Counted from the stretch's first letter, positions 1 to 11,687 are shown. The stretch: DNA of 11,813 bases from a virus (IMGVR_UViG_2663763428_000005); one strand, 5' to 3'. Notes: generated from the letters alone by a model not told the origin. Made by a program: numbers and translations.

Positions 1-110
1 AGCTAGAAGTTTCAAATGATTAGATATTTAACATTACCCATATTCAATCAAAAAAATAACGCCCTGCCATTTCAAGTAAAAATTACCAATATTTTCAGAT
101 AGTAGTGGCG

Positions 111-1088
111 TTAATTTTCTTCAGTTTTTTTATTTTTTCTTGCAGGAAGTTTAGGCTTATATGCATTAACAAAAAGTTGATATGAATCCTGTAATGATAA
201 TCCGGGAAGGGTATCGTTTTTGGCACTAAATATTGCATAATACTTTTCGTATCGACTTATATCTTTTTCAAACACCCATGTCCATTCAGAATCATATAGT
301 CTTTCCCCTCCTTTTTCCTTATTTTTGTTCTCAACTGTACGATTAATTATAAATTTGAAAACGGTATTATTCAAAGTTCTAATAAAATTCTCAACAATAA
401 ATGCGATTTGCTCGAGATCATCATTATTGAGTATTATCGGTTTTTCTAAGTGCTTCATATGTTCAGCCAATCCTAGTCGGATTGCATTTTTCGAACCCAA
501 CTTACCAAATCGATGAACACAACAATGCCTTAACTCGCAAACTTTCATGAATTCGCTTGAGCATTTCATCATTTCGATTGGTCGTTGTCCTTTCATTCCA
601 ATAATGTCCTTTAATGTTTCAAAAACATTATAAGGGCTTGCCAATGAAAAGTCCTCAAGTAAAGCTTCTGGTAATAACTCCTTTTTATGGTGTTGTGCCG
701 CTGCATAACTAACGGCCTTATCAGAAACTATAGACTGTATATATTCATCATGATTAATTAGATTTCTGATAAGAGCTCGCAAATAACTTTCGGCTGCAGA
801 CACATAACCTAATAACAACAGATGGCTTAATGTGTTTGAAATATCACCAGATCTTAACAAGTGAAGTTGCTTTGTATTAGCTATAAAAAGATCTAACGGG
901 GATTCCTTGCTATCAACAGGTAACTCATTAAATTTTTTGTGTGTCTCAAACGAAAAAACTAGAGCTGGATTACTACATAGTTCAAAAAACTCTCTTCCAT
1001 CTAAGTTATCATGGGTTGCAGTGACAACTGAGGACGCCACATTATGATGAGTGGTCTCTTCATAATCCTCTTTTGATTCTAGTTCCAT
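111..1088 (-). CDS. Hypothetical protein, third gene of the MTase-ATPase operon; possible HEPN-like or other nuclease effector (speculative)
   Basis: Long minus-strand ORF (track 111..1214, which opens on a TTG). In-frame ATGs at 1181, 1148 and 1088; 1088 (MELESKEDYEE...) is chosen because it has a purine-rich stretch upstream and a hydrophilic N-terminus, but the start is uncertain. The ORF overlaps or abuts the upstream ATPase stop at 1159. Contains 'ELRHCCVHRFGK', which fits the HEPN Rx4-6H signature; this short motif can occur by chance. Stop TAA at 111-113. Confidence 0.55.
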   Translation of the reverse strand: MELESKEDYEETTHHNVASSVVTATHDNLDGREFFELCSNPALVFSFETHKKFNELPVDSKESPLDLFIANTKQLHLLRSGDISNTLSHLLLLGYVSAAESYLRALIRNLINHDEYIQSIVSDKAVSYAAAQHHKKELLPEALLEDFSLASPYNVFETLKDIIGMKGQRPIEMMKCSSEFMKVCELRHCCVHRFGKLGSKNAIRLGLAEHMKHLEKPIILNNDDLEQIAFIVENFIRTLNNTVFKFIINRTVENKNKEKGGERLYDSEWTWVFEKDISRYEKYYAIFSAKNDTLPGLSLQDSYQLFVNAYKPKLPARKNKKTEEN

Positions 1089-1158
1089 TTTCCCGACTCT
1101 TTTTAAATTAAACTTTTCAGATAAGAAAGACACGATTGACAAGTACATGCCATCAAAA

Positions 1159-2865
1159 TTAAGACAAAAACTCTTCAACATGTAATAACACTTTGTCCAT
1201 AATTTTATTGGCAATTTTGGGTCCTATTCTGTGAATTTTTCTTAACTCACTCCCAGGGTCTTGTAAAGACAATACATCTCCTATAGTTTTTACTTTTTCC
1301 AGCCCAGATAGTTTTTGCATTTGCCAAGATGTTAGATGTGGTACTTTTGACAGTGGAATAGACATGCACTGATTATAGGCCGACTCATCAATCAATTGAT
1401 TCCCACAATGATGGCAAAATTTTTGATTGTCAGTCAATCGCGGAGTCTTGCAGTTATTGCATGGAGGTAAAGTTAGTTTAAGTCTCGCAAGTTGCTCAGC
1501 ATTGAATAATGATGAAATGTTTCTTCTGACAGGATGCTTAGCATTCTTTCTTAGTATTTTTTGAATAATCTGAGAAGGAGAAAAACCTCTACTTCCTTCG
1601 TTAAACACTCTTTCCTTTATTAATAAAGCATAATGAGGTATATATCTTTCATAAGTACGCCCATCACCATGAGAAATATCAGGAAGATTATAAAAAAGCC
1701 CTGTTTCAATTAATAGCTTAGTGAGTCGAGAAAAATAAACATTATCATTTTTCTCTATACCGATTATGACTTGTTTCTCTTCTTTATATTGGGAGTTACT
1801 TTCCTTGAGTAATTCGACTACTTTTAATAAAAGTGATTCACCTAATGAAACAATGTCAAACAATCGAGGTAGCTTATCTTTTAGTGAACTGTATTCGCTG
1901 AGTCTAAGCTCAACATACCTTTCAATTATTTTATTAAATTTTTGCTGAGTTGTCTGACTTAAAGTTGTTTGATAATCTCTTAACATCATCAAAAAAGAAC
2001 GTGGAATACCAAATGCTGAGAATTTAAATAACTCTTTCAAGTCATCCGGAATGCCATCATACCCAGGAAACCTTGCCTGCGCTATAGCATCCATCACTGA
2101 GGAATAATTAGGGTGCTGTACCGAAATCCAAGCATCAATTGTTTCAGCATCATGAGCAACATGAAACCTTGGGCCATATTCGGTTGTTCCAGGATAAACC
2201 GATGCCTTTAAAGCTATTTTTGAGGTTTTTAGACTACGTACAATATCAAAAAACTCGTAAAGATATTCAGGAGTTAAGCTTATTGCTGCATCGTCTAATA
2301 AAATAATGACTCTTTTACGTTCAAGCCAATCACATAGTGAACTCAACGAGGATATAACAGAAGAAACACTGATCAATTGAACAATGTTTTCTTGTTCTAA
2401 TGATGGCGAAAGACCCTGCTCAAGCCTTACGATTAAATTAATTAGGAACTCTTTATCCGCTATGAGTATCGTTGACAAATCAAGATATTCAGAATCTTCA
2501 ATATCGCAAGCAATTTCATAAGCAGAGAGTAGTATCTTTGCTAATACCCATTTATGAAAGAGATCAATTGCATTTGGTTTATTTTTTAAAAGCGGCTCTA
2601 ACTTAAAATATTTATTAAAAGAAACATAGAGTGGTAATGGTGCGTTATCATCGTTTTTACATTCAACCCAAGCATAACGCATCAAATGTGTTTTACCACA
2701 TCCCCTAGGACCAACTATAAGTTTGATGCCTGGGGATATAAGAGCATTATGTATAATATCGAAAAACTCTCCAGTTCTGATAGTATTATTTTTTATCGTA
2801 TCCTCATCAATATAATCAGCTCGTTCCTCGATAAGAAAATTACTATCTAATTCCACATCAGTCAT
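1159..2865 (-). CDS. P-loop NTPase (AAA+/ORC-Cdc6-like) with C-terminal CxxC...CxxC zinc ribbon and helix-hairpin-helix-like tail
   Basis: 568-aa ORF. Walker A 'GPRGCGKTH' near the N-terminus, Walker B 'VIILLDDA', C-terminal 'CNNCKTPRLTDNQKFCHHCG' (four-Cys zinc ribbon), then a Gly-rich 'RIGPKIANKI' segment typical of HhH DNA-binding motifs. ATG at 2865 overlaps the MTase stop (2858-2860) by 8 nt, indicating translational coupling. Confidence 0.85.
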   Translation of the reverse strand: MTDVELDSNFLIEERADYIDEDTIKNNTIRTGEFFDIIHNALISPGIKLIVGPRGCGKTHLMRYAWVECKNDDNAPLPLYVSFNKYFKLEPLLKNKPNAIDLFHKWVLAKILLSAYEIACDIEDSEYLDLSTILIADKEFLINLIVRLEQGLSPSLEQENIVQLISVSSVISSLSSLCDWLERKRVIILLDDAAISLTPEYLYEFFDIVRSLKTSKIALKASVYPGTTEYGPRFHVAHDAETIDAWISVQHPNYSSVMDAIAQARFPGYDGIPDDLKELFKFSAFGIPRSFLMMLRDYQTTLSQTTQQKFNKIIERYVELRLSEYSSLKDKLPRLFDIVSLGESLLLKVVELLKESNSQYKEEKQVIIGIEKNDNVYFSRLTKLLIETGLFYNLPDISHGDGRTYERYIPHYALLIKERVFNEGSRGFSPSQIIQKILRKNAKHPVRRNISSLFNAEQLARLKLTLPPCNNCKTPRLTDNQKFCHHCGNQLIDESAYNQCMSIPLSKVPHLTSWQMQKLSGLEKVKTIGDVLSLQDPGSELRKIHRIGPKIANKIMDKVLLHVEEFLS

Positions 2866-4066
2866 GTTTAATCCTTACAAGATGTATTTTTTTTAATGCA
2901 TCCATTGTAATATGTTGTGCGGCTACACCACTACTCGCTCGAGATAATTCCTCTTGCCCATCTTGAGAACAAAGAAAATCAAATAGTTTTTTCTTATCTC
3001 CACCAGAGGCTCGTATCAGAAAAATACAGTCACTGATATAAGAATAGCCGCTCTCAACAAACAATATTTTTTTATGAAAATTTCGCCCAACTCTTGCTAT
3101 TAATATATCACCAGGCTTAGCAATGACATCTAATTTTGATGGCTTCAATTCTTCTACAGAGTTGCAGTGGAATTTAATGTACTTTTCATCACCACTAAAT
3201 TTTGTCGTATGAAAAACATGTTCCGTAATTTCCTTTGAATTAAACCTACCTCTAAAAATTGAAATATTTTTAAGCATCCCTATTGTGCTAAACCCTTTAC
3301 CTTCATTTTTATTATAATGATAAGAGTAGTCCATTCTCTCAACCGCATCTTCTTTTCTAATTAAAACAGAAGGCGACAATTCCCCATCTTTAGTTATACA
3401 ATGTAATTGTATTTTATGATGAGGCATAATTTTTTTATTAAAAATTAAAATATGTGTTTTAGCCTCTGTCCTTTTGAAGATATTCCTAGGCAATTCAATG
3501 ACTTTTGTAATTGAATGTTCATTCAATAAATATCGTCTTAAACCTATAAACTTTCTTGCTGTAAATATACCATCAGGTAAAATTATTCCAGCCTCACCGC
3601 CCTTTTTAAGAAACCTGATGACTTGAGATATAAATATTATCTCTGCTGGGACATATTTTGAGACAGATATATATTTATCTGCGCCAATCTCACTAATGAT
3701 TTTAAAATAATCATCCCTCCATTCAGGGAGAGTGAATGGAGGATTACATACTGCAACATCAAAATTTCCTTGATGTCGGGCAAGCATTTCAGGAAATGAA
3801 TGAACAAGGGCATCTGTTACAATATGAGTAAGATTATCACATACTTTTTTTGACATCCGAGATTCTATATCCAAAGAATATGCTTCTGCATTCTTCCATC
3901 GGTCTAAAGCAGCATAGGTTAAGCTCCCCTCACCAGAAGCTAAATCAATAATATTATTGACTTTTTCAGCTTTCATCTGAGAAACCAATAATGCACTTAT
4001 GGATTCTTTTGTATAGTATCTTCCGAGACTATCTCGTTGTGTGAATGGCATATAGTTACTGTTCAT
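2858..4066 (-). CDS. N6-adenine DNA methyltransferase (gamma-class, TaqI/Eco57I-like catalytic domain plus C-terminal putative target-recognition domain)
   Basis: 402-aa ORF. 'GRYYT' N-terminal motif (as in HsdM/PglX-type MTases), SAM-binding motif I 'DLASGEGS', catalytic motif IV 'NPPF' ('VAVCNPPFTLPEW') about 65 residues later. The roughly 250-aa C-terminal remainder is long enough for a target-recognition domain. First gene of a 3-gene coupled operon. Confidence 0.9.
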   Translation of the reverse strand: MNSNYMPFTQRDSLGRYYTKESISALLVSQMKAEKVNNIIDLASGEGSLTYAALDRWKNAEAYSLDIESRMSKKVCDNLTHIVTDALVHSFPEMLARHQGNFDVAVCNPPFTLPEWRDDYFKIISEIGADKYISVSKYVPAEIIFISQVIRFLKKGGEAGIILPDGIFTARKFIGLRRYLLNEHSITKVIELPRNIFKRTEAKTHILIFNKKIMPHHKIQLHCITKDGELSPSVLIRKEDAVERMDYSYHYNKNEGKGFSTIGMLKNISIFRGRFNSKEITEHVFHTTKFSGDEKYIKFHCNSVEELKPSKLDVIAKPGDILIARVGRNFHKKILFVESGYSYISDCIFLIRASGGDKKKLFDFLCSQDGQEELSRASSGVAAQHITMDALKKIHLVRIKHD

Positions 4067-4307
4067 TTTTTATACTCATCTTAAGTACGCTACCGCCCTA
4101 GGCGTTACGGCTACCCAAGAACCAACACAATCATGTAATCTATTGATATTTATAAACTTATCTTCAAATCTTTCAGCCCTAGAACCTAAAAAAGATAGAA
4201 GTGTAGGTAACAAAGGGCGATCGGATATAGGGCTAATGTTTAAACTTAAGTATCAAAATATACGGTTTTAGGTCATTTTCCTAATCAATCCTATCATCAC
4301 GTCAAAT

Positions 4308-5516
4308 CTACTTTGTAGCGTTCACCAGCAAAGAAATACATGAATTATGATTAGCGTTTATATAGTCCGCATACCACTGCATCATCTCCCTACGTCCTTC
4401 CAAATACAACGCATGGTTATACGTCCCACGAATCGCATTTTTATCAACGTGAGCCAGCTGGGTTTCAATCCACGCTGTATTGAAACCTTCCTCATGCAAA
4501 ATCGTACTCATCGTGTGACGGAAACCATGCCCCGTTACCCTCCCCGTATATCCAATCCGCTTAAAAACCTGATTAATACTCGCTTCACTCATCGTCTTGC
4601 GGGGATCATTACGTCCCGGGAACACCAGTGGATATTGCCCTGACATCACTTTGAGTTGCTGTACGATTTCCAGCGCTTGGGTAGAGAGGGGGACAAGGTG
4701 AGGCCGTTTCATCTTCATACGCTCGGCAGGTATCTCCCACACCGCTTTTTCAAGATCAAACTCACTCCAGAAAGCACCTCGGAGTTCGCCAGTGCGAACT
4801 CCCGTGAGGATCAGCAGACGTGCCGCAAGAACAACTAACGGGCTTCCTGTGTAGCCTGCGAGAGCTTTAAAAAAGTCTGGTAACTCCTCAACAGTAAGGA
4901 AGGGATAATGCTTCGATTCATGCCCTGACATCGCGCTGGTAAGATCCGCTGCAGGATTGTATTCCGCACGACCGGTTACGATGGCGTAACGAAAGACTTC
5001 GCTGCAACGCTGGCGAACCTTCTTGGCCTTCTCTGTCGCGCCACGGCTTTCAATTCGACGCAGCACATTAAGCAGAACCAGCGGTTTGATTTCATTCACC
5101 GGTTGTTGGCCAATATAGGGAAAAATATCTTTATTAAAGGCTTCGATAATGTCCGAGGCATAACCTTCTGACCATCGGCTCACCTTCGTTCCATGCCATT
5201 CAAGTGCCACAGCCTGAAACGTATTATTTAGCTGCACATCTCGAACCAGCTTTTCTTCTTTCTTGGCAAGCGATGGATCGATACCTTCGGCAAGCTTTTT
5301 CTTGGCGTCGTCACGCAGTGCCCTCGCTTGTGCAAGGGACACTGCCGGATAGACACCAAAGGCCATACGCTTCTCTTTTCCATTGAAGCGATATTTCATC
5401 CGCCAGTATCTGGAACCAGAGGGAACAACCTCAAGATACAAACCAGCACCATCTGCCAGCTTATAGGCTTTCTCTCTGGGTTTAGCTGCGTCTACCTGTC
5501 GCGCATTAAGTTTCAT
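4308..5516 (-). CDS. int: Tyrosine site-specific recombinase, P4-type (tRNA-targeting) integrase
   Basis: N-terminus 'MKLNARQVDAAKPREKAYKLADGAGLYLEV...' is the canonical P4-like integrase arm-binding region. C-terminal catalytic residues are in 'HGFRHTMST' and '...GTYNHALYLEGRREMMQWYADYI' (R...HxxR...Y). ATG at 5516 has an AGGGAG Shine-Dalgarno upstream; the ORF track extends to 5555 with alternative upstream starts. Lies 164 bp downstream of a tRNA 3'-end repeat in the same orientation. Confidence 0.92.
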   Translation of the reverse strand: MKLNARQVDAAKPREKAYKLADGAGLYLEVVPSGSRYWRMKYRFNGKEKRMAFGVYPAVSLAQARALRDDAKKKLAEGIDPSLAKKEEKLVRDVQLNNTFQAVALEWHGTKVSRWSEGYASDIIEAFNKDIFPYIGQQPVNEIKPLVLLNVLRRIESRGATEKAKKVRQRCSEVFRYAIVTGRAEYNPAADLTSAMSGHESKHYPFLTVEELPDFFKALAGYTGSPLVVLAARLLILTGVRTGELRGAFWSEFDLEKAVWEIPAERMKMKRPHLVPLSTQALEIVQQLKVMSGQYPLVFPGRNDPRKTMSEASINQVFKRIGYTGRVTGHGFRHTMSTILHEEGFNTAWIETQLAHVDKNAIRGTYNHALYLEGRREMMQWYADYINANHNSCISLLVNATK

Positions 5517-5574
5517 TGGGGGCATCTCCCTAGACCGAACACAAAATGCCCCCACTTATGCCCCCAACTGCGAC

Positions 5575-5658
5575 TTGATTTCGGTTGAGTCTAGTTGATA
5601 ACAGGAGATAAGATACGGGCCAGAAACCGCAGTATACGAGCTTTTAGTTGATTTCGGT
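5575..5658. repeat. Direct repeats between tRNA repeat and int start; putative integrase arm-type or regulatory sites
   Basis: Exact 11-mer 'TTGATTTCGGT' at 5575-5585 and 5648-5658; 'AGTTGAT' at 5593-5599 and 5646-5652. Located in the int promoter/att region. Confidence 0.4.
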
Positions 5659-5679
5659 AGACTTGGGAAGAGTTTGAAA

Positions 5680-5725
5680 TGGTGCCGATAATAGGAGTCG
5701 AACCTACGACCTTCGCATTACGAAT
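5680..5725 (-). repeat. Partial tRNA-Thr(CGU) 3' end (about 46 nt, anticodon loop to CCA); attachment-site (att) repeat, not an intact tRNA
   Basis: Reverse complement of 5680-5725 reads 'ATTCGTAATGCGAAGGTCGTAGGTTCGACTCCTATTATCGGCACCA', matching the 3' part of enterobacterial tRNA-Thr(CGU) (thrW-type) as remembered. The sequence beyond 5725 does not supply the required 5' acceptor strand 'GCCGATA' or a D-arm, so the tRNA is truncated. Confidence 0.8.
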
Positions 5726-6421
5726 TATAAGAATCCGCTTCTAATTCAAAGTATTACCCCATCAACACTGTGCTCACACGTCCCACCACATCAAAACATG
5801 TAAAGCCTTGCAAGCCATTGTGAGGCCTTATGTGTCTCAGTTTTGTCCCACCTTGTATTATGACTTGCATAGCCAATGAAGATAAACGTGACGACAAACA
5901 GCGCAGCAGTCTTCTTTTCTTTCACACTTTCCCCAATCAGCATACATACTTTCTACCATAACTGTAGTGAATGTCTGTTATGAGCGAGCAAAAGAGATTC
6001 AATTACCGGGGAATTACTCCGACATAAGCTCTCCCAGAAACACCGGAACAGCGATTCGCATATTCTCTTCTATACTTTCAGTCTGACCGGCTGGAGATTT
6101 CATAGCAAGAAAATGGATGAGCCAAGACCTATGCGGGAAAGAGGCTGAGGAAATAATTGCCGATAGCACTGTGCCCGACGAAAAGTTAATCTGGCACGCA
6201 ATGACGCGCGTCCTTGGGGCATCAGGAATCAGAGAGCCAACTTAACAACCCATTATATATTATTTAACCGGACTGTTACATGTACAAAGTTCAATGATTA
6301 GTGATTCTGTGACGCCACATACAACCTAAGCCCCTGATATAAAACCAGTCTATGCAACACCTAAAAATCATATATGATAGGGTGATAAGTCAACGCGCAG
6401 TATAAAAATTAAGCTAAAAAA

Positions 6422-6472
6422 TGCTTTCAGCATAGTGAATCTATTTCACACTACATAATTAAGGATGAAAAA
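6422..6472 (+). promoter_or_regulatory. Putative promoter/operator region of the ParA-like operon
   Basis: AT-rich leader with two small inverted repeats ('TGCT-TTC-AGCA' 6422-6432; 'GTGAA-TCTAT-TTCAC' 6435-6449), a -10-like 'CATAAT' (6454-6459) and an 'AAGGATG' Shine-Dalgarno ahead of the ATG at 6473. Confidence 0.3.
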
Positions 6473-7318
6473 ATGACTGCACCAGTAATTAGTTTTATCA
6501 ATATGAAAGGTGGGGTTGGTAAAACAACTTTATGCGTTGGGATTGCTGAGTTTTTAGCCAACCATATGGGGCGCAAGGTTCTAGTTATCGATATTGATCC
6601 TCAATTTAATGCCACTCAGTCCTTAATGGGGCATTATGATCGAGTAGAAGAATATATGACTGCCCTTCGCCCTAATAATCAAACCATTCGAAAGATTTTT
6701 GAGCTTCCAAATTCATTAATGGAAGATGAAAAGAAAGTGACACCAGAACAGGTCATTACTAAAGTTTCAGACAATCTTGATATTATCTTAGGTGATATAA
6801 ACATTATCTTTGATACTAACCAAGAGGGTATTAGAATAAAAATGTTGCGTAAATTCATCACCGAAAATGACTTAAAAGAAAGTTACGACTATATCTTTAT
6901 CGATAGCCCCCCAACAATCTCATTATTTACAGATACCGCACTCCTTGCTTCTGATTATTATCTTACTCCGGTTAAAATTGATCACTACTCGGTGCTTGGA
7001 GCAAGCAGTTTAAATAGCGTTATAAGAAATATGCGCACACATCATGAGAAAGAAATCAAGCAAGTCGGTTACATTTATACAAACACTGATGCTGAAATGA
7101 CCAATAAAACAAGGGAAATTAAAGAACAATTCGAAAACCATACTCAATTTACAAATTTTTATTTCTTTGAAAATCAATTAACCTACGTGCGTGATTTAAT
7201 GGTAGGTTATCAAGGAAATATTCCTTCTTGTTATTCAAAGTCACGCCAAGATATAGAAAAGATCTGTAACGAATTTATTAACAGAGTGGCTCACTTGGAA
7301 GGTAACACAAATGAATAA
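6473..7318 (+). CDS. ParA/MinD-family (deviant Walker A) ATPase
   Basis: 281-aa ORF. Deviant Walker A 'NMKGGVGKTT', 'VIDIDPQ' motif, Walker B-like 'IFIDSPP'. Good Shine-Dalgarno. Stop overlaps the next gene's start (ATGAATAA). Confidence 0.88.
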   Translation: MTAPVISFINMKGGVGKTTLCVGIAEFLANHMGRKVLVIDIDPQFNATQSLMGHYDRVEEYMTALRPNNQTIRKIFELPNSLMEDEKKVTPEQVITKVSDNLDIILGDINIIFDTNQEGIRIKMLRKFITENDLKESYDYIFIDSPPTISLFTDTALLASDYYLTPVKIDHYSVLGASSLNSVIRNMRTHHEKEIKQVGYIYTNTDAEMTNKTREIKEQFENHTQFTNFYFFENQLTYVRDLMVGYQGNIPSCYSKSRQDIEKICNEFINRVAHLEGNTNE

Positions 7319-7709
7319 ACAATTAATTAAAGCGCTCAATAAAGCTAATAATATGCCCATGACCAAAGAAAACTTCTTAGGCTTGGTAATTATGTTGATT
7401 CTTTCAAAAGAGGTTTTTAGATCAAATTTTGATGTTAGTAAATTTATTAACAAAACCTTCAAAATATCTTTTTTGAATTATGCTGTACGGTCAAGAACTT
7501 TGATGTGCGCTAAAATTTGCAGACATATTAATGAATTAAGTGAGAATGACATAAAGATGGCTTATACGCATTTCTTAAACAACATTAACACATTAGACAT
7601 TATTTTTAATGATGCAAATAAAACAAGCCAAAAACCCACATCTAAAAGCAAGCATGCTATAAGGAATTTAAATATTTGGATTAATGCAAATAAAAAGGAA
7701 GAAGAATAA
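7311..7709 (+). CDS. Hypothetical protein (132 aa), coupled to ParA-like ATPase
   Basis: ATG at 7311 preceded by a 'GGAAGG' Shine-Dalgarno and overlapping the ParA stop; Lys/Asn-rich basic C-terminus. No recognisable domain by eye. Its stop overlaps the next start (TAATG). Confidence 0.6.
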   Translation: MNKQLIKALNKANNMPMTKENFLGLVIMLILSKEVFRSNFDVSKFINKTFKISFLNYAVRSRTLMCAKICRHINELSENDIKMAYTHFLNNINTLDIIFNDANKTSQKPTSKSKHAIRNLNIWINANKKEEE

Positions 7710-8374
7710 TGCTCACGCAGGATCCCTTCAACATTGGAAGAGATGTAAATTATTTTAGAGCGGAGGTGCAAAAGCACCTCAGAACCACTGATGAAATAAA
7801 CAAATCAGTATCAATATTTAGGCAAATAAGTCTTTGTAATACAATTTTAAGTCACAATCCTAATCTAAATCACTCTTCTTATATAAAAGGTTTTATATAT
7901 GATACCTTAAACTCCTTAATTGCCATTATAAAAAAAAGAGAACGGTATCTCCAACTGAACTTCCGCTCAATGGTGGAGCATGTGGCCAGAATAAGCCTCA
8001 ATAAGAACTACAATGGTGGGGATTTTGACCAAACTGTACGTCGTAGAGACTTTGACTTCTTAAAAGCCCAACAAGTCGATGAAGGCTGGTCTTATTTACA
8101 TAATGTCTATATCAACGCCTGTTATTATGTTCACTCCTCCCCCCAAGCGAACCTAAATGTTACATCAACATTTATATCACTTATGGAGGGAGATTGTAAT
8201 TCAACACAGCATAAAATGGTGAAAAAACTTCATGAGGTAGTATCGGCGCTGATGAGAATCATTATAAAGTATTATCATCAGCATATCTCAAACATTTTCT
8301 TTAGAAACAAAAAGGATTTAGAGAAAATAATGGGAAAAAGCCTTTATTCATATTATACCAGCTTAGACAATTAA
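7709..8374 (+). CDS. Hypothetical protein (221 aa), third gene of the ParA-like operon
   Basis: ATG at 7709 preceded by an 'AAGGAAG' Shine-Dalgarno and overlapping the previous stop (TAATG). Contains 'NFRSMVEHVAR' (an Rx4H-type motif of unknown significance). No recognisable domain. Confidence 0.65.
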   Translation: MLTQDPFNIGRDVNYFRAEVQKHLRTTDEINKSVSIFRQISLCNTILSHNPNLNHSSYIKGFIYDTLNSLIAIIKKRERYLQLNFRSMVEHVARISLNKNYNGGDFDQTVRRRDFDFLKAQQVDEGWSYLHNVYINACYYVHSSPQANLNVTSTFISLMEGDCNSTQHKMVKKLHEVVSALMRIIIKYYHQHISNIFFRNKKDLEKIMGKSLYSYYTSLDN

Positions 8375-8439
8375 TTCTCTCATATTCATTGCGTAGAGCA
8401 TAAATATCTATCTAACCACCTAAAATGCCAGAAAATCTA

Positions 8440-9170
8440 GTTGTATACCGGTGCGAAAATATCTCGCGTTTCATCTGCCACTGCTGCTGAATGCCCTGCC
8501 CAGCGAAACAGAGTGTTTCCTTCCCGTCTTTTGCATTGAGGTGCTCCAGCACGCTCATTAACTTTTCGCTCCCAGGACCCAGCGCGTTATCGTCGAATAG
8601 GTTAGGGCATGCTCTGACTGAAGAAGTCCCCCAGCATTACCCCGGCTTTCTGATATCGGTGTCCGTCTTTCCATATTGCATCCAGACTCCCCGTTGCTAC
8701 TGCAATGATATCCCGACTGTCCTGTGTCGGGATGAGCAGCTTCACCGACGCGCTGTTACAGTAGTACGACTCGTTCAACGCAAAGGGTATCGTGTAAAAC
8801 CGATGATGACACTGCCGGCAATCAGCACTGACGTCAGCAAACGTGAGAAAGAACAGATAAGCCGAACGATTTAGGAAATGTTTGAAGAGACTGATATGTG
8901 GATGGTTTCAGTTTAAACGCCTTGAACCGTCATATTACCTAAGTACAATCCGCTGTGACTGGCAATCATTCAATACTTGCACTATCAAAAGTGCATCAGC
9001 CAACCGCAGCACGTCTTGCATACGACCTGTCTGCGGTTTCAATCACCTCTCACCACCAGTCCCATCAATAATAATTAAACAGCGCCTAAACAAAATAAAT
9101 AACAACAAGTCAACAACCTCGACAGGATGCCGATGGGATGATGAAGAGATAAGAAAGAATAACTAGTAAA
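8440..9170. other. GC-richer segment without a convincing gene; possible degraded gene remnant
   Basis: Composition differs from the flanking AT-rich genes. The plus-strand ORFs here (8491..8874, 8882..9166) have odd Cys/Ser/Pro/Arg-rich compositions. On the minus strand, a 48-codon frame runs from an internal Met to a stop near 8420 (MSVLEHLNAKDGKETLCFAGQGIQQQWQMKREIFSHRYTTRFSGILGG); an upstream stop was not located. Confidence 0.25.
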
Positions 9171-9304
9171 GCCCTAAAACGTCAGCGTTCAGACGCGTTT
9201 TTTACTTAACCGGTAACAAATACGTTGTATCATAGCAACATAAAATGATTGTTCTAAATCAGATTAACTCCTCACTTTTGTACAATGTCGCTTACAGGTA
9301 TACC

Positions 9305-11194
9305 ATGAAATCCGAGACGCTAACTGTCCAACAACTTTTTCAAGACCGCCGACAATACTGTGTTCCATTCTATCAACGTGCCTATGTATGGACTCAGCGA
9401 AACCAATGGTCAGCTCTACTGGAGGATATCCTAGAGAAAGCACAATCCCGGCTCTCGGGTACAAAACCAACTCCCCATTTCCTTGGTGCAGTGGTACTGG
9501 AACCTCAACCAAAAAAAGGATTATTCGGTGTAGATTCCATACATATTATTGATGGTCAGCAACGATTGACCACTCTTCAATATGTTCTGGCATCCATCCG
9601 ATTAGCATTACGTGCGACAGATCTTTCCAACTTAGAGCCTCTCATTTCGTCTTGCCTGAAAAACTCAAACGAAGACACAATGCGAAATAAAGAAGTAGAG
9701 CGCTTCAAACTGTGGCCAACTTTTCGGGATCAAACTCATTTTATTCAAAGTTTTAATGTTGAAAATATTGACGATATCCGGAATGTATTCTCTGATAGTT
9801 TCACGCAGCATGGTACGTTGCGTAAGCATTTTAATCACCCGCCATCACTAGAAGCATTATGTTTTTTTACTGAAGCCTTTATAAAGTGGATTAAAATAGA
9901 AAATCACTCACCACGAGAAAATGCTGTAGCATTAATTGAGGCTGTCTTGACGGATCTGAAACTAGTAAGCATATTTCTCGAGGCTGAAGATGACGCTCAA
10001 ATAATTTTTGAAACATTAAATGGCAGAGGTGCGGAACTTCATGCCACAGATCTTATTCGCAATTATATTTTTATGTGCGCTGAACATGAAAATATTAATG
10101 CTGTTGAATTATATGAGAATGAGTGGAAGATCTTTGAAGATACGTACTGGTCAGAAAGACAACGTCGTGGTCGTATTAATAAACCACGCATGGAGTGGCT
10201 AGTGCATGCAACATTGCAATCAGAAAGGCAACGTGAAATCGATCTGTCTCGTCTTTACAATGAGTATCGTGATTATGTAAGTAAGGACTTGCCTTCACAA
10301 CGAGCAGATCTGCAAGTAAAGCGCCTCAAACAATATGCATCACAATATAAAGAATTGGTTGGTGGTTTTGGCACAACCCCCATCTCACACTTTGGACATC
10401 GCATCGCAGCCTATGATGTGACGACACTTTATCCGCTTGCTTTGTTCATTTCGATAGCTAACATCGCCGATGATGAGAAAGCAGCCATGTATAATGATCT
10501 TGTCTCCTACGTAGTACGAAGAGCCGTATGTGGCCTGACGCCAAAGAATTACAACAATGTATTTATGAATGTATTGCGGCACTTGTCTAAAACAGAAATT
10601 TCCAGTGTTGAGTTACGTAATATCCTCAATAGCTTAAATGGCGAAGCCTCACGTTGGCCTGGGGACTCAGAATTTCTCAACGCTTGCATCAATGCTCCAC
10701 TTTATCCTGGCAGGCTCGACGCACCGAAAATGCGCTCAATGTTAACGGAACTTGAAAGAGAACTTTGTCGCCAAGTGAAGACAGAGAAGCCTGATGTTCC
10801 AAATCTTTCTAACCTCGATATCGATCATCTTATGCCTCAAAGTTGGTATTCCTGTTGGCCTCTCGAAAATGGTCATATAGTGACAAATTCAGATGCTACG
10901 GTATTGAACCAAATTGTTCTGTCTGGAACCGATCTTACCCCAGAACAGCTACTGGTAAGGAAACGGCAACAAGCGATAGCTACGTTGGGAAATCTAACTT
11001 TGCTTAACCTTAGCGTAAACCGTTCTGTTCAGAATGCTGTATTTCTGAAAAAACGTGATGCTCTCATCGTCCACACCAATCTACGACTGAACATTCCACT
11101 TATAGTTAAGGATAAATGGGATGAGGATGAAATCCTGGAGCGGGGTAAAAAGTTGGGGGAAATTGCATTGAAAGTATGGCCAAAACACGATTAA
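9305..11194 (+). CDS. GmrSD-like DUF262/DUF1524 protein; putative type IV (modification-dependent) restriction endonuclease or related defence nuclease
   Basis: N-terminal DUF262/ParB-like signatures 'VPFYQRAYVW' and 'IIDGQQRLTTL'. C-terminal DUF1524/His-Me-finger-like 'DIDHLMPQSW' and 'GNLTLLNLSVN'. Start uncertain: ATG at 9245 (longest ORF, no Shine-Dalgarno) or ATG at 9305 (AGG about 9 nt upstream, motif spacing typical for the family). Confidence 0.85.
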   Translation: MKSETLTVQQLFQDRRQYCVPFYQRAYVWTQRNQWSALLEDILEKAQSRLSGTKPTPHFLGAVVLEPQPKKGLFGVDSIHIIDGQQRLTTLQYVLASIRLALRATDLSNLEPLISSCLKNSNEDTMRNKEVERFKLWPTFRDQTHFIQSFNVENIDDIRNVFSDSFTQHGTLRKHFNHPPSLEALCFFTEAFIKWIKIENHSPRENAVALIEAVLTDLKLVSIFLEAEDDAQIIFETLNGRGAELHATDLIRNYIFMCAEHENINAVELYENEWKIFEDTYWSERQRRGRINKPRMEWLVHATLQSERQREIDLSRLYNEYRDYVSKDLPSQRADLQVKRLKQYASQYKELVGGFGTTPISHFGHRIAAYDVTTLYPLALFISIANIADDEKAAMYNDLVSYVVRRAVCGLTPKNYNNVFMNVLRHLSKTEISSVELRNILNSLNGEASRWPGDSEFLNACINAPLYPGRLDAPKMRSMLTELERELCRQVKTEKPDVPNLSNLDIDHLMPQSWYSCWPLENGHIVTNSDATVLNQIVLSGTDLTPEQLLVRKRQQAIATLGNLTLLNLSVNRSVQNAVFLKKRDALIVHTNLRLNIPLIVKDKWDEDEILERGKKLGEIALKVWPKHD

Positions 11195-11241: not shown

Positions 11242-11446
11242 ACTCACTATTAAATCCTTTAATTTGCAACAAGAACAGCAGTGTCAGCCCTAGGTTTCGG
11301 ACTTTGTACCGCTTATCTTGTCTTCAAAATCAGCTCGCATCCTGCACAGTTCAGCGCATTACGTTGTAGATCTGTGTTCTGGTCATTTGTTGATACGCGA
11401 ACATAGCCAATAAGCATGATAGCTCCTCCTGACAAAAACAGGAACG

Positions 11447-11687
11447 ATGCCATTTGCGCGCTATTTCTGCATTTTCATAAACGTTCAATTGGGAGAAGCG
11501 GCAAAACGGGATGTCGGAACCGGTAATAATCAACTCCCGGACATGTCCGCATTTGGTATGTCGCGAAACGGACAAACTGCCTGGGATATTCTCCCAAATG
11601 GTATGATTCGACAGGTTGGTACTGTGACACTGACGCCTGTTGGTAATTTCAACGCAATTACTCTTGGTGGAGTGCTGTACTACACCC
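11447..11687 (+). pseudogene. ORF truncated by IS insertion (unknown product)
   Basis: The plus-strand ORF 11447..11716 runs straight into the IS terminal repeat; its last 9 codons (TLNRPGNPGD) are encoded by IS sequence, so the native 3' end is missing. Product not recognised. Confidence 0.3.

Follow-up and report, generated by a model that had tools for sequence, protein, structure and literature searches.

A three-gene methyltransferase, ATPase and HEPN-like protein module in an Escherichia coli chromosomal island: a candidate modification-linked immune system

What is a DNA methyltransferase (MTase) doing in an operon that holds no recognisable restriction endonuclease (REase), and in which its partners are an ATPase and a small HEPN-like protein? 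This question is raised by IMGVR_UViG_2663763428_000005, a stretch of 11,813 nt filed as viral (the window hereafter, with positions counted from its first letter), which is in fact E. coli chromosome and is matched at 100% identity by, for example, NZ_CP082129.1 3765074-3776886. An original prediction made from the sequence had proposed that the three minus-strand genes at one end of the window form an undescribed defence operon. Our results lead us to favor, tentatively and at somewhat less than an even chance, the view that they constitute a horizontally mobile immune module that follows restriction-modification (R-M) logic and acts through an RNase effector.

The three open reading frames (ORFs) lie exactly where they had been placed, and they are tightly coupled (Table 1). 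The MTase stop codon overlaps the ATPase start as claimed, and the second junction, which had been described as overlapping or abutting, is one or the other depending on the start of gene 3: the TTG at 1214 gives a 56-nt overlap with the ATPase gene, the ATG at 1181 gives a 23-nt overlap, and the ATG at 1148 lies 10 nt past the ATPase stop. The start of gene 3 is uncertain because its first ~70 residues are not conserved, and these residues are also not covered by a confident model. Again as originally described, the module is AT-rich cargo that follows a P4-type integrase, and it lies in a chromosomal island of E. coli. The GC content is 0.30-0.37 across positions 1-4250 versus 0.45-0.51 over the integrase gene, whose domain set is that of the P4 type. 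In NZ_CP082129.1, the island adjoins the lsr operon and is flanked by insertion sequence (IS) remnants and lambdoid tail genes.

The same three genes recur across bacterial phyla. A scan with the ATPase profile, taking one genome per species, gave 80 loci spanning Gamma-, Beta-, Alpha-, and Deltaproteobacteria, Bacteroidota, Myxococcota, Bacillota, Planctomycetota, and others. A gene-3 homologue lies directly downstream of the ATPase gene in 79 of them, the exception being a 1.6-kb contig (hence 79/79 informative loci), with a 4-nt overlap as the modal junction, and an MTase of the same family adjoins in 74/80 (93%). The usual order is MTase-ATPase-gene 3, with ATPase-gene 3-MTase in ~10 loci and a divergent MTase gene in 3. 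A triad that is found again in 74 of 80 independently sampled species genomes is more than a chance association, and we conclude that the three genes, which are translationally coupled, have been inherited together across phyla. Catalytic motifs are intact in all 80 ATPases, in all 79 gene-3 proteins, and in 73 of the 74 MTases. The remark that no partner REase could be recognised holds well outside the window, as no REase family was found in the operon or as a conserved neighbour in the 80 loci, and these loci revealed no conserved fourth gene or hidden REase, the top flanking family occurring in 8/80. The nearest neighbours in other species are mostly integrases, resolvases, and transposases, accompanied by scattered defence genes (type I REase, GmrSD, Lamassu [LmuA], retron reverse transcriptases, AriA, NsnB, PD-T4-5, and HsdR with a GHKL ATPase) and by housekeeping genes. 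The mobile setting and the neighbouring defence genes lend contextual support to a role in defence.

Judged by its motifs and profile matches, gene 1 encodes a gamma-class N6-adenine DNA MTase with its own C-terminal target recognition domain (TRD). The predicted protein matches Pfam N6_Mtase (9.8e-23) and Eco57I (6e-11) and aligns end to end with the REBASE-derived PADLOC model MTase_II PDLC03285 (1e-237). It can be assigned to the gamma class because DLASGEG (motif I) is N-terminal to NPPF (motif IV), in agreement with the signatures that had been noticed in the sequence. Residues 256-400 resemble the TRD of an S subunit (NF047740, 6e-5), and the proteins of solved structure nearest to the MTase are M subunits of type I systems and BsaXI, a likeness that is confined to the catalytic core. 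Among the homologues, motif IV reads NPPY in 44 and NPPF in 29.

Gene 2 encodes a P-loop ATPase of the STAND/ORC-Cdc6 clade with a winged helix-turn-helix (wHTH) and a zinc ribbon, while support for a helix-hairpin-helix (HhH) tail is weak. The protein has a P-loop core with Walker A and B motifs, a helical lid, and a C-terminal wHTH, and its fold is nearest to archaeal ATPases and then to STAND NLR/CED-4 proteins and Avs, including Avs3. Of the original description as an ORC-like ATPase with a zinc ribbon and an HhH tail, the clade and the ribbon therefore stand, the latter with four invariant cysteines and a Zn_ribbon_3 match that is below threshold (E 1.7e-4 with the isolated tail), whereas the HhH tail drew only weak, sub-threshold matches; its near-invariant residues are G529, D530, P537, G548, and R551. 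Going by its motifs, the ATPase appears to be catalytically intact, and its wHTH, its zinc ribbon, and its HhH-like tail are DNA-binding modules of a generic kind. We found no hypervariable reader domain in either the ATPase or gene 3, and because the wHTH of the ATPase is well conserved, the TRD of the MTase is the sole obvious sequence-specific reader in the module.

Gene 3 is probably a divergent HEPN protein of the RiboL-PSP-like kind. Five residues in and directly after its Rx4H motif are invariant in 51 sequences, R218 and H223 are also invariant in the 29 most divergent members, and R[HN]xxxH is present in 79/79 genomic homologues; an upstream helix with E131, R135, and R139 and a further residue, N271, are likewise invariant. 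None of the 51 core members matches PF18735 (HEPN_RiboL-PSP) at E<=0.05, but 6 of the 29 divergent members match it nearly full length, the best at 25.3 bits (E 1.7e-5) against a gathering threshold of 28.4 bits, and hhalign joins this divergent branch to the core family with 100% probability. These alignments point to gene 3 being a relative of PF18735 that falls outside the family by Pfam's own rule. The protein is without a Pfam, NCBIfam, PHROG, or PDB-sequence match, and because an exhaustive profile search of 1.84 billion representatives found only 422 relatives, its family is small and isolated. Being HEPN-like, the protein is a predicted RNase and not a DNase. The original idea of an ATPase with a nuclease as effector is thus kept in the form of an RNase, as a DNA nuclease is not what HEPN predicts.

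Some records of gene 3 in NCBI and UniRef bear the name "phage head-tail connector protein," which we reject, given that the predicted protein appears to be all-alpha and HEPN-like and is without a PHROG match and that a tblastn search of the phage collection gave no match to the ATPase. Neither sequence, fold, nor context speaks for the name, which looks like an annotation error that is being propagated. Within the family, a divergent branch (P0478, P0481, and P0484-P0486; L092 1880-3262) carries a C-terminal extension of ~200 aa with no Pfam match, and in L092 this long form is preceded by a 566-aa zinc-ribbon ATPase and adjoined by a type I HsdR and a GHKL ATPase. An in-frame fusion in P0038 (522 aa; L089-L091; three runs from one metagenome study) joins the MTase catalytic domain to the HEPN protein and lacks both the TRD and the ATPase. 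We considered a designed MTase::HEPN fusion and rejected it, as the contigs are without the ATPase; P0038 is probably a deletion derivative. In locus L026, a Cthe_2314-type HEPN gene lies just downstream of the ATPase-gene 3 pair, and hhalign found no relation between the gene-3 profile and a HEPN protein of that type.

Table 1. Features of the three-gene module and the adjoining integrase gene (window positions)
Feature	Position	Strand	Details
Gene 1, MTase	2858..4066	minus	402 aa, WP_001087767.1
MTase motif I DLASGEG, AdoMet (S-adenosylmethionine) binding	3926..3946	minus	from the translation
MTase motif IV NPPF, catalytic	3734..3745	minus	from the translation
MTase stop/ATPase start overlap, translational coupling	2858..2865	minus	8 nt; from ORF coordinates, PGAP agrees
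Gene 2, ATPase	1159..2865	minus	568 aa, WP_000132880.1
Walker A GPRGCGKT, aa 52-59	2689..2712	minus	invariant in the alignment; 80/80 homologues
Walker B core DDAA, aa 191-194 (within LLDDAA)	2284..2295	minus	D191, D192, A193, A194 invariant; 80/80
Zinc ribbon CxxC...CxxC, C469, C472, C484, C487	1405..1461	minus	four Cys invariant; 80/80
C-terminal helical tail, HhH-like hairpins, aa ~496-568	1162..1380	minus	HHH_8 0.0058, HHH_5 0.053; weak, sub-threshold
Gene 3, HEPN-like predicted RNase	111..1181	minus	356 aa by PGAP, WP_000920172.1
Gene 3, longest ORF	111..1214	minus	TTG start, 367 aa
Gene 3, alternative starts	1214, 1148, 1088	minus	PGAP start is 1181
Rx4H motif RHCCVH, R218...H223	513..530	minus	R218, H219, C220, H223, R224 invariant in 51 sequences
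P4-type tyrosine integrase, context of the module	4308..5555	minus	Arm-DNA-bind_3, Phage_int_M, and Phage_integrase

Does the triad belong to a system that already has a name? Searches with PADLOC, NCBIfam, Pfam, and PHROGs returned catalytic-core or P-loop matches for the MTase and the ATPase and nothing for gene 3, so that an assignment to a named system was rejected; for the ATPase, the PADLOC matches were at the P-loop level (E 1e-4 to 4e-3) and nothing in NCBIfam came near its cut-offs. In these profile searches, neither the ATPase nor gene 3 was given a housekeeping role. The claim that the gene content differs from type I, II, or III R-M, BREX, and DISARM was borne out when their defining components were looked for. 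A sequence-specific DNA MTase of the type II kind is present (full-length match to PADLOC MTase_II, motifs I and IV, TRD), but no cognate REase with a DNase fold lies beside it in the operon or across the 80 loci. With regard to types I and III, the ATPase is of the AAA+/STAND clade and not of superfamily 2 (SF2), the operon has no HsdS or HsdR, and the hsdM model TIGR00497 gives the MTase 46 bits against a cut-off of 243. Models of PglZ and BrxC did not match the operon, which is three genes only, and the PglX model NF033452 reaches 31.6 bits against a cut-off of 500 in a match limited to the MTase catalytic core. DISARM components (DrmA helicase, DrmB [DUF1998], and DrmC [PLD]) had no PADLOC or Pfam match, no PrrC or RloC model matched, and among the MADS models (MAD1-8), MAD2 scored 58.6 bits against 720, MAD5 scored 21.9 against 400, and mad8 matched the P-loop only (E 0.0036). 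Neither the openly searchable literature nor the DefensePredictor supplements contain the accessions of the three proteins, and the surveys of STAND, BREX-related, phosphorothioation, and HEPN systems in that literature do not describe the triad.

The PGAP label "ORC-CDC6 family" on the ATPase was also rejected, as it rests on a partial match: PF24389 aligns over profile positions 27-121 of 571 only (aa 40-122, 37.7 bits). A true PF24389 member (668 aa, in locus L002) matches profile positions 3-571 at 1.9e-95 and has 15 residues in common with the module ATPase by BLASTP, and true PF24389 proteins belong to a different system that is linked to PRTase-CE. Such systems resemble the module in having three genes and in the P-loop segment RGCGKTxLMRY, which is common to both ATPase families, but their partners are a PRTase and a protein with no known role instead of an MTase and a HEPN protein. 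In L002 (10815-14728) and 7 other loci (8/80), PRTase-CE (PF24390), the true ORC-CDC6-like ATPase, and a 308-aa protein directly adjoin the module, and proteins of this second triad match the PADLOC models "CARF6" and "PRTase_III-A."

The module would belong to a kind of defence that is already known, namely R-M- or BREX-like, modification-linked, and NTPase-driven, and two of its component protein families are uncharacterised. A close parallel in composition is provided by the type-1 BREX-related (BR) systems, which likewise join an MTase, an ORC/Cdc6/STAND-clade AAA+ ATPase with a wHTH, and a HEPN endoRNase in one operon (PMC12839542; PMC3710099) and which are also predicted to be modification-linked defences with an RNase arm. 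In those systems, however, HEPN is fused to a DUF499 ATPase of ~1,000 aa with BrxC-like extra domains and an RRM tail, accompanied by a DUF1156 MTase and a core helicase, whereas in the module the ATPase is 568 aa long and ends in a zinc ribbon/HhH tail, the RiboL-PSP-like HEPN protein is separate, the MTase is an N6_Mtase with TRD, and a helicase is absent; no match to type-1 BR families at the sequence level was found in Pfam, PADLOC, or NCBIfam. BREX type 1 (PglX with the ORC/Cdc6-clade ATPase BrxC) and Ssp (SspC) are also among the closest systems, but BREX needs PglZ, BrxA, BrxB, and BrxL, has proteins of ~1,200 aa, and lacks a HEPN core. PrrC-EcoprrI and RloC share the principle of a P-loop NTPase that controls a latent HEPN RNase tied to DNA-modification genes, with abortive infection as the outcome; PrrC is one ABC-ATPase::HEPN polypeptide within a complete type Ic hsdMSR operon, whereas here the ATPase is of the AAA+/STAND clade, the HEPN protein is separate, and there is no HsdR or HsdS. 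Type III R-M is similar in its proposed logic, in that an MTase with the sole TRD gives specificity to an ATP-dependent restriction partner and its loss abolishes restriction rather than kills, but in type III the DNA is cut by Res, an SF2 helicase that bears a PD-(D/E)xK nuclease, and Mod is a beta-class enzyme, in contrast to the AAA+ ATPase, HEPN protein, and gamma-class MTase of the module. Finally, Avs and other antiviral STAND NTPases with HEPN effectors also couple a STAND-type switch ATPase to a nuclease, but Avs proteins do so in one large polypeptide, which binds phage proteins through TPR-like sensor arms, and they lack an MTase partner.

Evidence on what the MTase may recognise comes from the historical strain NCTC86, which carries the module at 100% identity and whose published methylome includes a type II gamma N6-methyladenine (m6A) activity at GGTACC (PMC5399273). 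As the module MTase is gamma-class and type II-like, it is the probable GGTACC m6A enzyme. No named M.KpnI relative, which would explain GGTACC, occurs among the MTase homologues, and the count of GGTACC sites in the window (0 seen versus 0.8 expected) is uninformative.

The E. coli population offers suggestive support for the three genes acting as one module. Some part of it is present in 148 of 5,426 complete genomes, always on the chromosome and at least 99% identical; the MTase is found in 145 and the complete ATPase-gene 3 segment in 145, and in none of the 5,426 does the pair occur when the MTase is absent. In each of the five disrupted alleles that we inspected, the ATPase is broken, which indicates that this is the gene whose loss is selected or permitted. 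EC15 and strain 167 carry IS3 in its 3' part (the allele of strain 167 being read from its match row in the genome survey only), HCP8S3_I1 carries IS1 in its 5' part, and MSB1_1D has IS1 in both the ATPase gene and gene 3. In W21, an IS1-mediated deletion has removed the MTase and the ATPase P-loop and left gene 3 intact, so that the HEPN protein alone appears to be tolerated.

From what was observed of domain identity, gene coupling, conservation, and distribution in the E. coli population, we infer each functional step of the mechanism that we propose. The MTase would mark host DNA, probably at GGTACC in E. coli, and would supply sequence specificity. The ATPase would join the MTase, in the manner of the pairs BrxC-PglX and Res-Mod, to detect unmodified or foreign DNA and would then switch its conformation or oligomeric state in an ATP-dependent manner, thereby activating the HEPN protein, which would cleave tRNA, rRNA, or mRNA so that translation stops and the infection is aborted. 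Because recognition would depend on the MTase, its loss would be expected to disarm the pair and not to unleash it. A stricter version, a minimal epigenetic-sensing abortive-infection system in which one MTase both marks self and guides the ATPase to unmethylated incoming sites, with methylation read out as RNA cleavage instead of DNA cleavage and all of it carried out by three small proteins whose families include no characterised member, is possible in our view, if doubtful.

Several observations weigh against the favored reading. A hypervariable TRD like that of type I and III systems was looked for and not found, unlike in diversifying R-M systems: mean pairwise identity is 0.34 in the TRD versus 0.39 in the catalytic domain. 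The divergence of the MTase tracks that of the ATPase weakly (Spearman 0.27-0.37 versus 0.53 for gene 3), and replacement of the whole MTase occurs among the loci. Five loci (L026, L027, L051, L053, and L058; Bacteroidota and Thiotrichales) hold motif-intact ATPase-HEPN pairs amid housekeeping genes with no adjacent MTase. In these, the pair may work without methylation, or the MTase may sit elsewhere in the genome, and MTase-dependent recognition as in type III R-M and BREX would reconcile them with the proposed mechanism. The GGTACC activity of NCTC86 probably belongs to the module MTase, but this is a candidate assignment and not a gene-by-gene one. The original description of gene 3 as a 330-370-aa HEPN-like Rx4H protein holds for the motif and is joined by the RiboL-PSP link found here, but Foldseek against the PDB backed no fold for the protein, HEPN included. 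In addition, the E. coli copies are so nearly identical that the population pattern does not represent many independent events. The absence of the module from the plasmid and phage collections was counted with these points but is itself neutral.

The other wirings of the same three parts have to be judged against this evidence. HEPN genes embedded in R-M operons are common, with PrrC-EcoprrI as a worked example (PMC3710099), and the MTase, with the ATPase, could instead keep the HEPN RNase latent until phage counter-defence (DNA mimics, Stp-like peptides, or SAM hydrolases) strikes the MTase or its cofactor. The tight coupling of all three genes and the tolerance of the HEPN protein in W21 would fit, and a lone MTase gives no first-line restriction, which makes a role as sensor or decoy attractive. 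We nevertheless regard such guarding as unlikely, since the partner of PrrC is a complete restricting type Ic system where no REase is found here, the ATPase has no homology to the ABC ATPases of PrrC and RloC, and pure inhibition predicts constitutive toxicity whereas motif-intact pairs without an MTase exist. These same pairs, with all motifs retained, speak for an autonomous Avs-like sensor, in which the ATPase and HEPN protein would sense a phage protein or nucleic-acid structure and the MTase would be an accessory, either a regulator or a hitch-hiking orphan methylase. The pair is the invariant core both in the 79/79 loci and in the divergent long-form branch, the MTase varies in position and strand and is sometimes replaced, and the fold neighbours of the ATPase include Avs. 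Yet one specific MTase family adjoins in 93% of the loci, often overlapping the ATPase start, the ATPase ends in a conserved zinc ribbon/HhH-type DNA-binding module instead of a repeat-type or variable sensor, and no E. coli genome retains the pair alone, all of which makes autonomy rather improbable.

Two further alternatives seem to us very unlikely. NTP-dependent type II systems with separate ATPase subunits exist, namely, CglI and NgoAVII, and the ATPase and gene 3 might similarly cut unmethylated DNA with gene 3 as a DNase; the MTase is a type II gamma enzyme of the REBASE type, and the motif in the carrier strain NCTC86 is palindromic. Against this, every HEPN domain with Rx4-6H that has been characterised is an RNase (PMC3710099), neither the ATPase nor gene 3 showed a motif or fold of the PD-(D/E)xK, HNH, PLD, or GIY-YIG kind, and pairs without an MTase would be lethal. 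A comparably slim chance falls to selfish stabilisation of the integrative element, whereby a long-lived ATPase/HEPN toxin would kill segregants once methylation has been diluted. The module is always cargo of mobile islands, and in E. coli the MTase is never lost alone while IS elements enter the ATPase gene, the pattern that R-M-like addiction would give; however, addiction does not exclude defence for R-M-like systems, the module is missing from the plasmid collection, where addiction modules are commonest, and the five loci without an MTase lie amid housekeeping genes.

If the favored reading of an immune module with an RNase effector is true, the module would be among the smallest modification-linked immune systems known and would show that R-M logic is able to drive an RNase. 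It would bear on how an ORC/Cdc6-type ATPase couples DNA methylation state to an effector, as in BREX-like systems, and would give a function to families now annotated "zinc ribbon domain-containing protein" and "hypothetical protein" as well as a role to an apparently orphan MTase in ~2.7% of complete E. coli genomes. A gap in defence annotation, where PADLOC calls only a lone MTase at this locus, would be closed, and the module would provide a tractable model that is native to E. coli, including NCTC86 with its published methylome. New candidate systems are common, but this one stands out for its small size, its wide conservation, and its natural occurrence in E. coli, for which the strains and methylome data needed for a direct test already exist.

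The rest of the window adds a number of observations on the setting of the module. Neither a tRNA nor an Rfam family nor att-like repeats were found in the window, and promoter and terminator scans gave signals no higher than background. A 241-bp spacer (4067-4307) separates the integrase stop from the MTase start and contains an imperfect inverted repeat, CCGTAACGCC-TAG-GGCGGTAGCG, ~25 nt upstream of the MTase ATG, a possible operator or structured part of the transcript. A segment of ~900 bp (5556-6472; GC 0.40-0.47), which runs from the integrase start to the ParA gene described below, has no convincing ORF but does have a 14-nt direct repeat, at 5575 and 5648; the attachment site of the integrase is not evident, because this segment has no tRNA or Rfam match. 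In strain 32-4 (L082, NZ_CP048310.1 1-10157), the same chromosomal position is taken by an integrase of 94% identity whose cargo, instead of the module, is a P4-like satellite with a helix-turn-helix regulator, an antirepressor, Ash, and a TOPRIM-DUF927 primase, and the element in the window may be a pared-down satellite left with defence cargo only.

On the other side of the integrase lies a second tightly overlapping three-gene operon (6473-8374, plus strand), which encodes a ParA-like ATPase (281 aa) and proteins of 132 and 221 aa. They match phrog_164, 6264, and 7540, to which no function is attached, and the ParA-like protein gives a weak match to PADLOC PDC-M28B. HEPN genes of the MAE_18760 type have been found in operons with ParA/Soj ATPases in a 2013 survey of HEPN proteins, and by comparison, this operon could be another candidate defence cassette. 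It adjoins a full-length GmrSD (DUF262-DUF1524) type IV modification-dependent restriction enzyme at the prophage end (9245-11194, plus strand; PADLOC mREase_IV, 1436 bits), so that in this island a methylating module is stacked beside an enzyme that attacks modified DNA. In strain Sanji, a type II R-M system and a GIY-YIG gene replace the block formed by the ParA operon and GmrSD across the integrase from the module. PGAP pseudogenes at 8412-8874 and 11296-11638 (DUF4113/UmuC-like, DinI, a recombinase fragment, and a gp53-like tail fibre fragment) are debris that marks the end of a decayed prophage.

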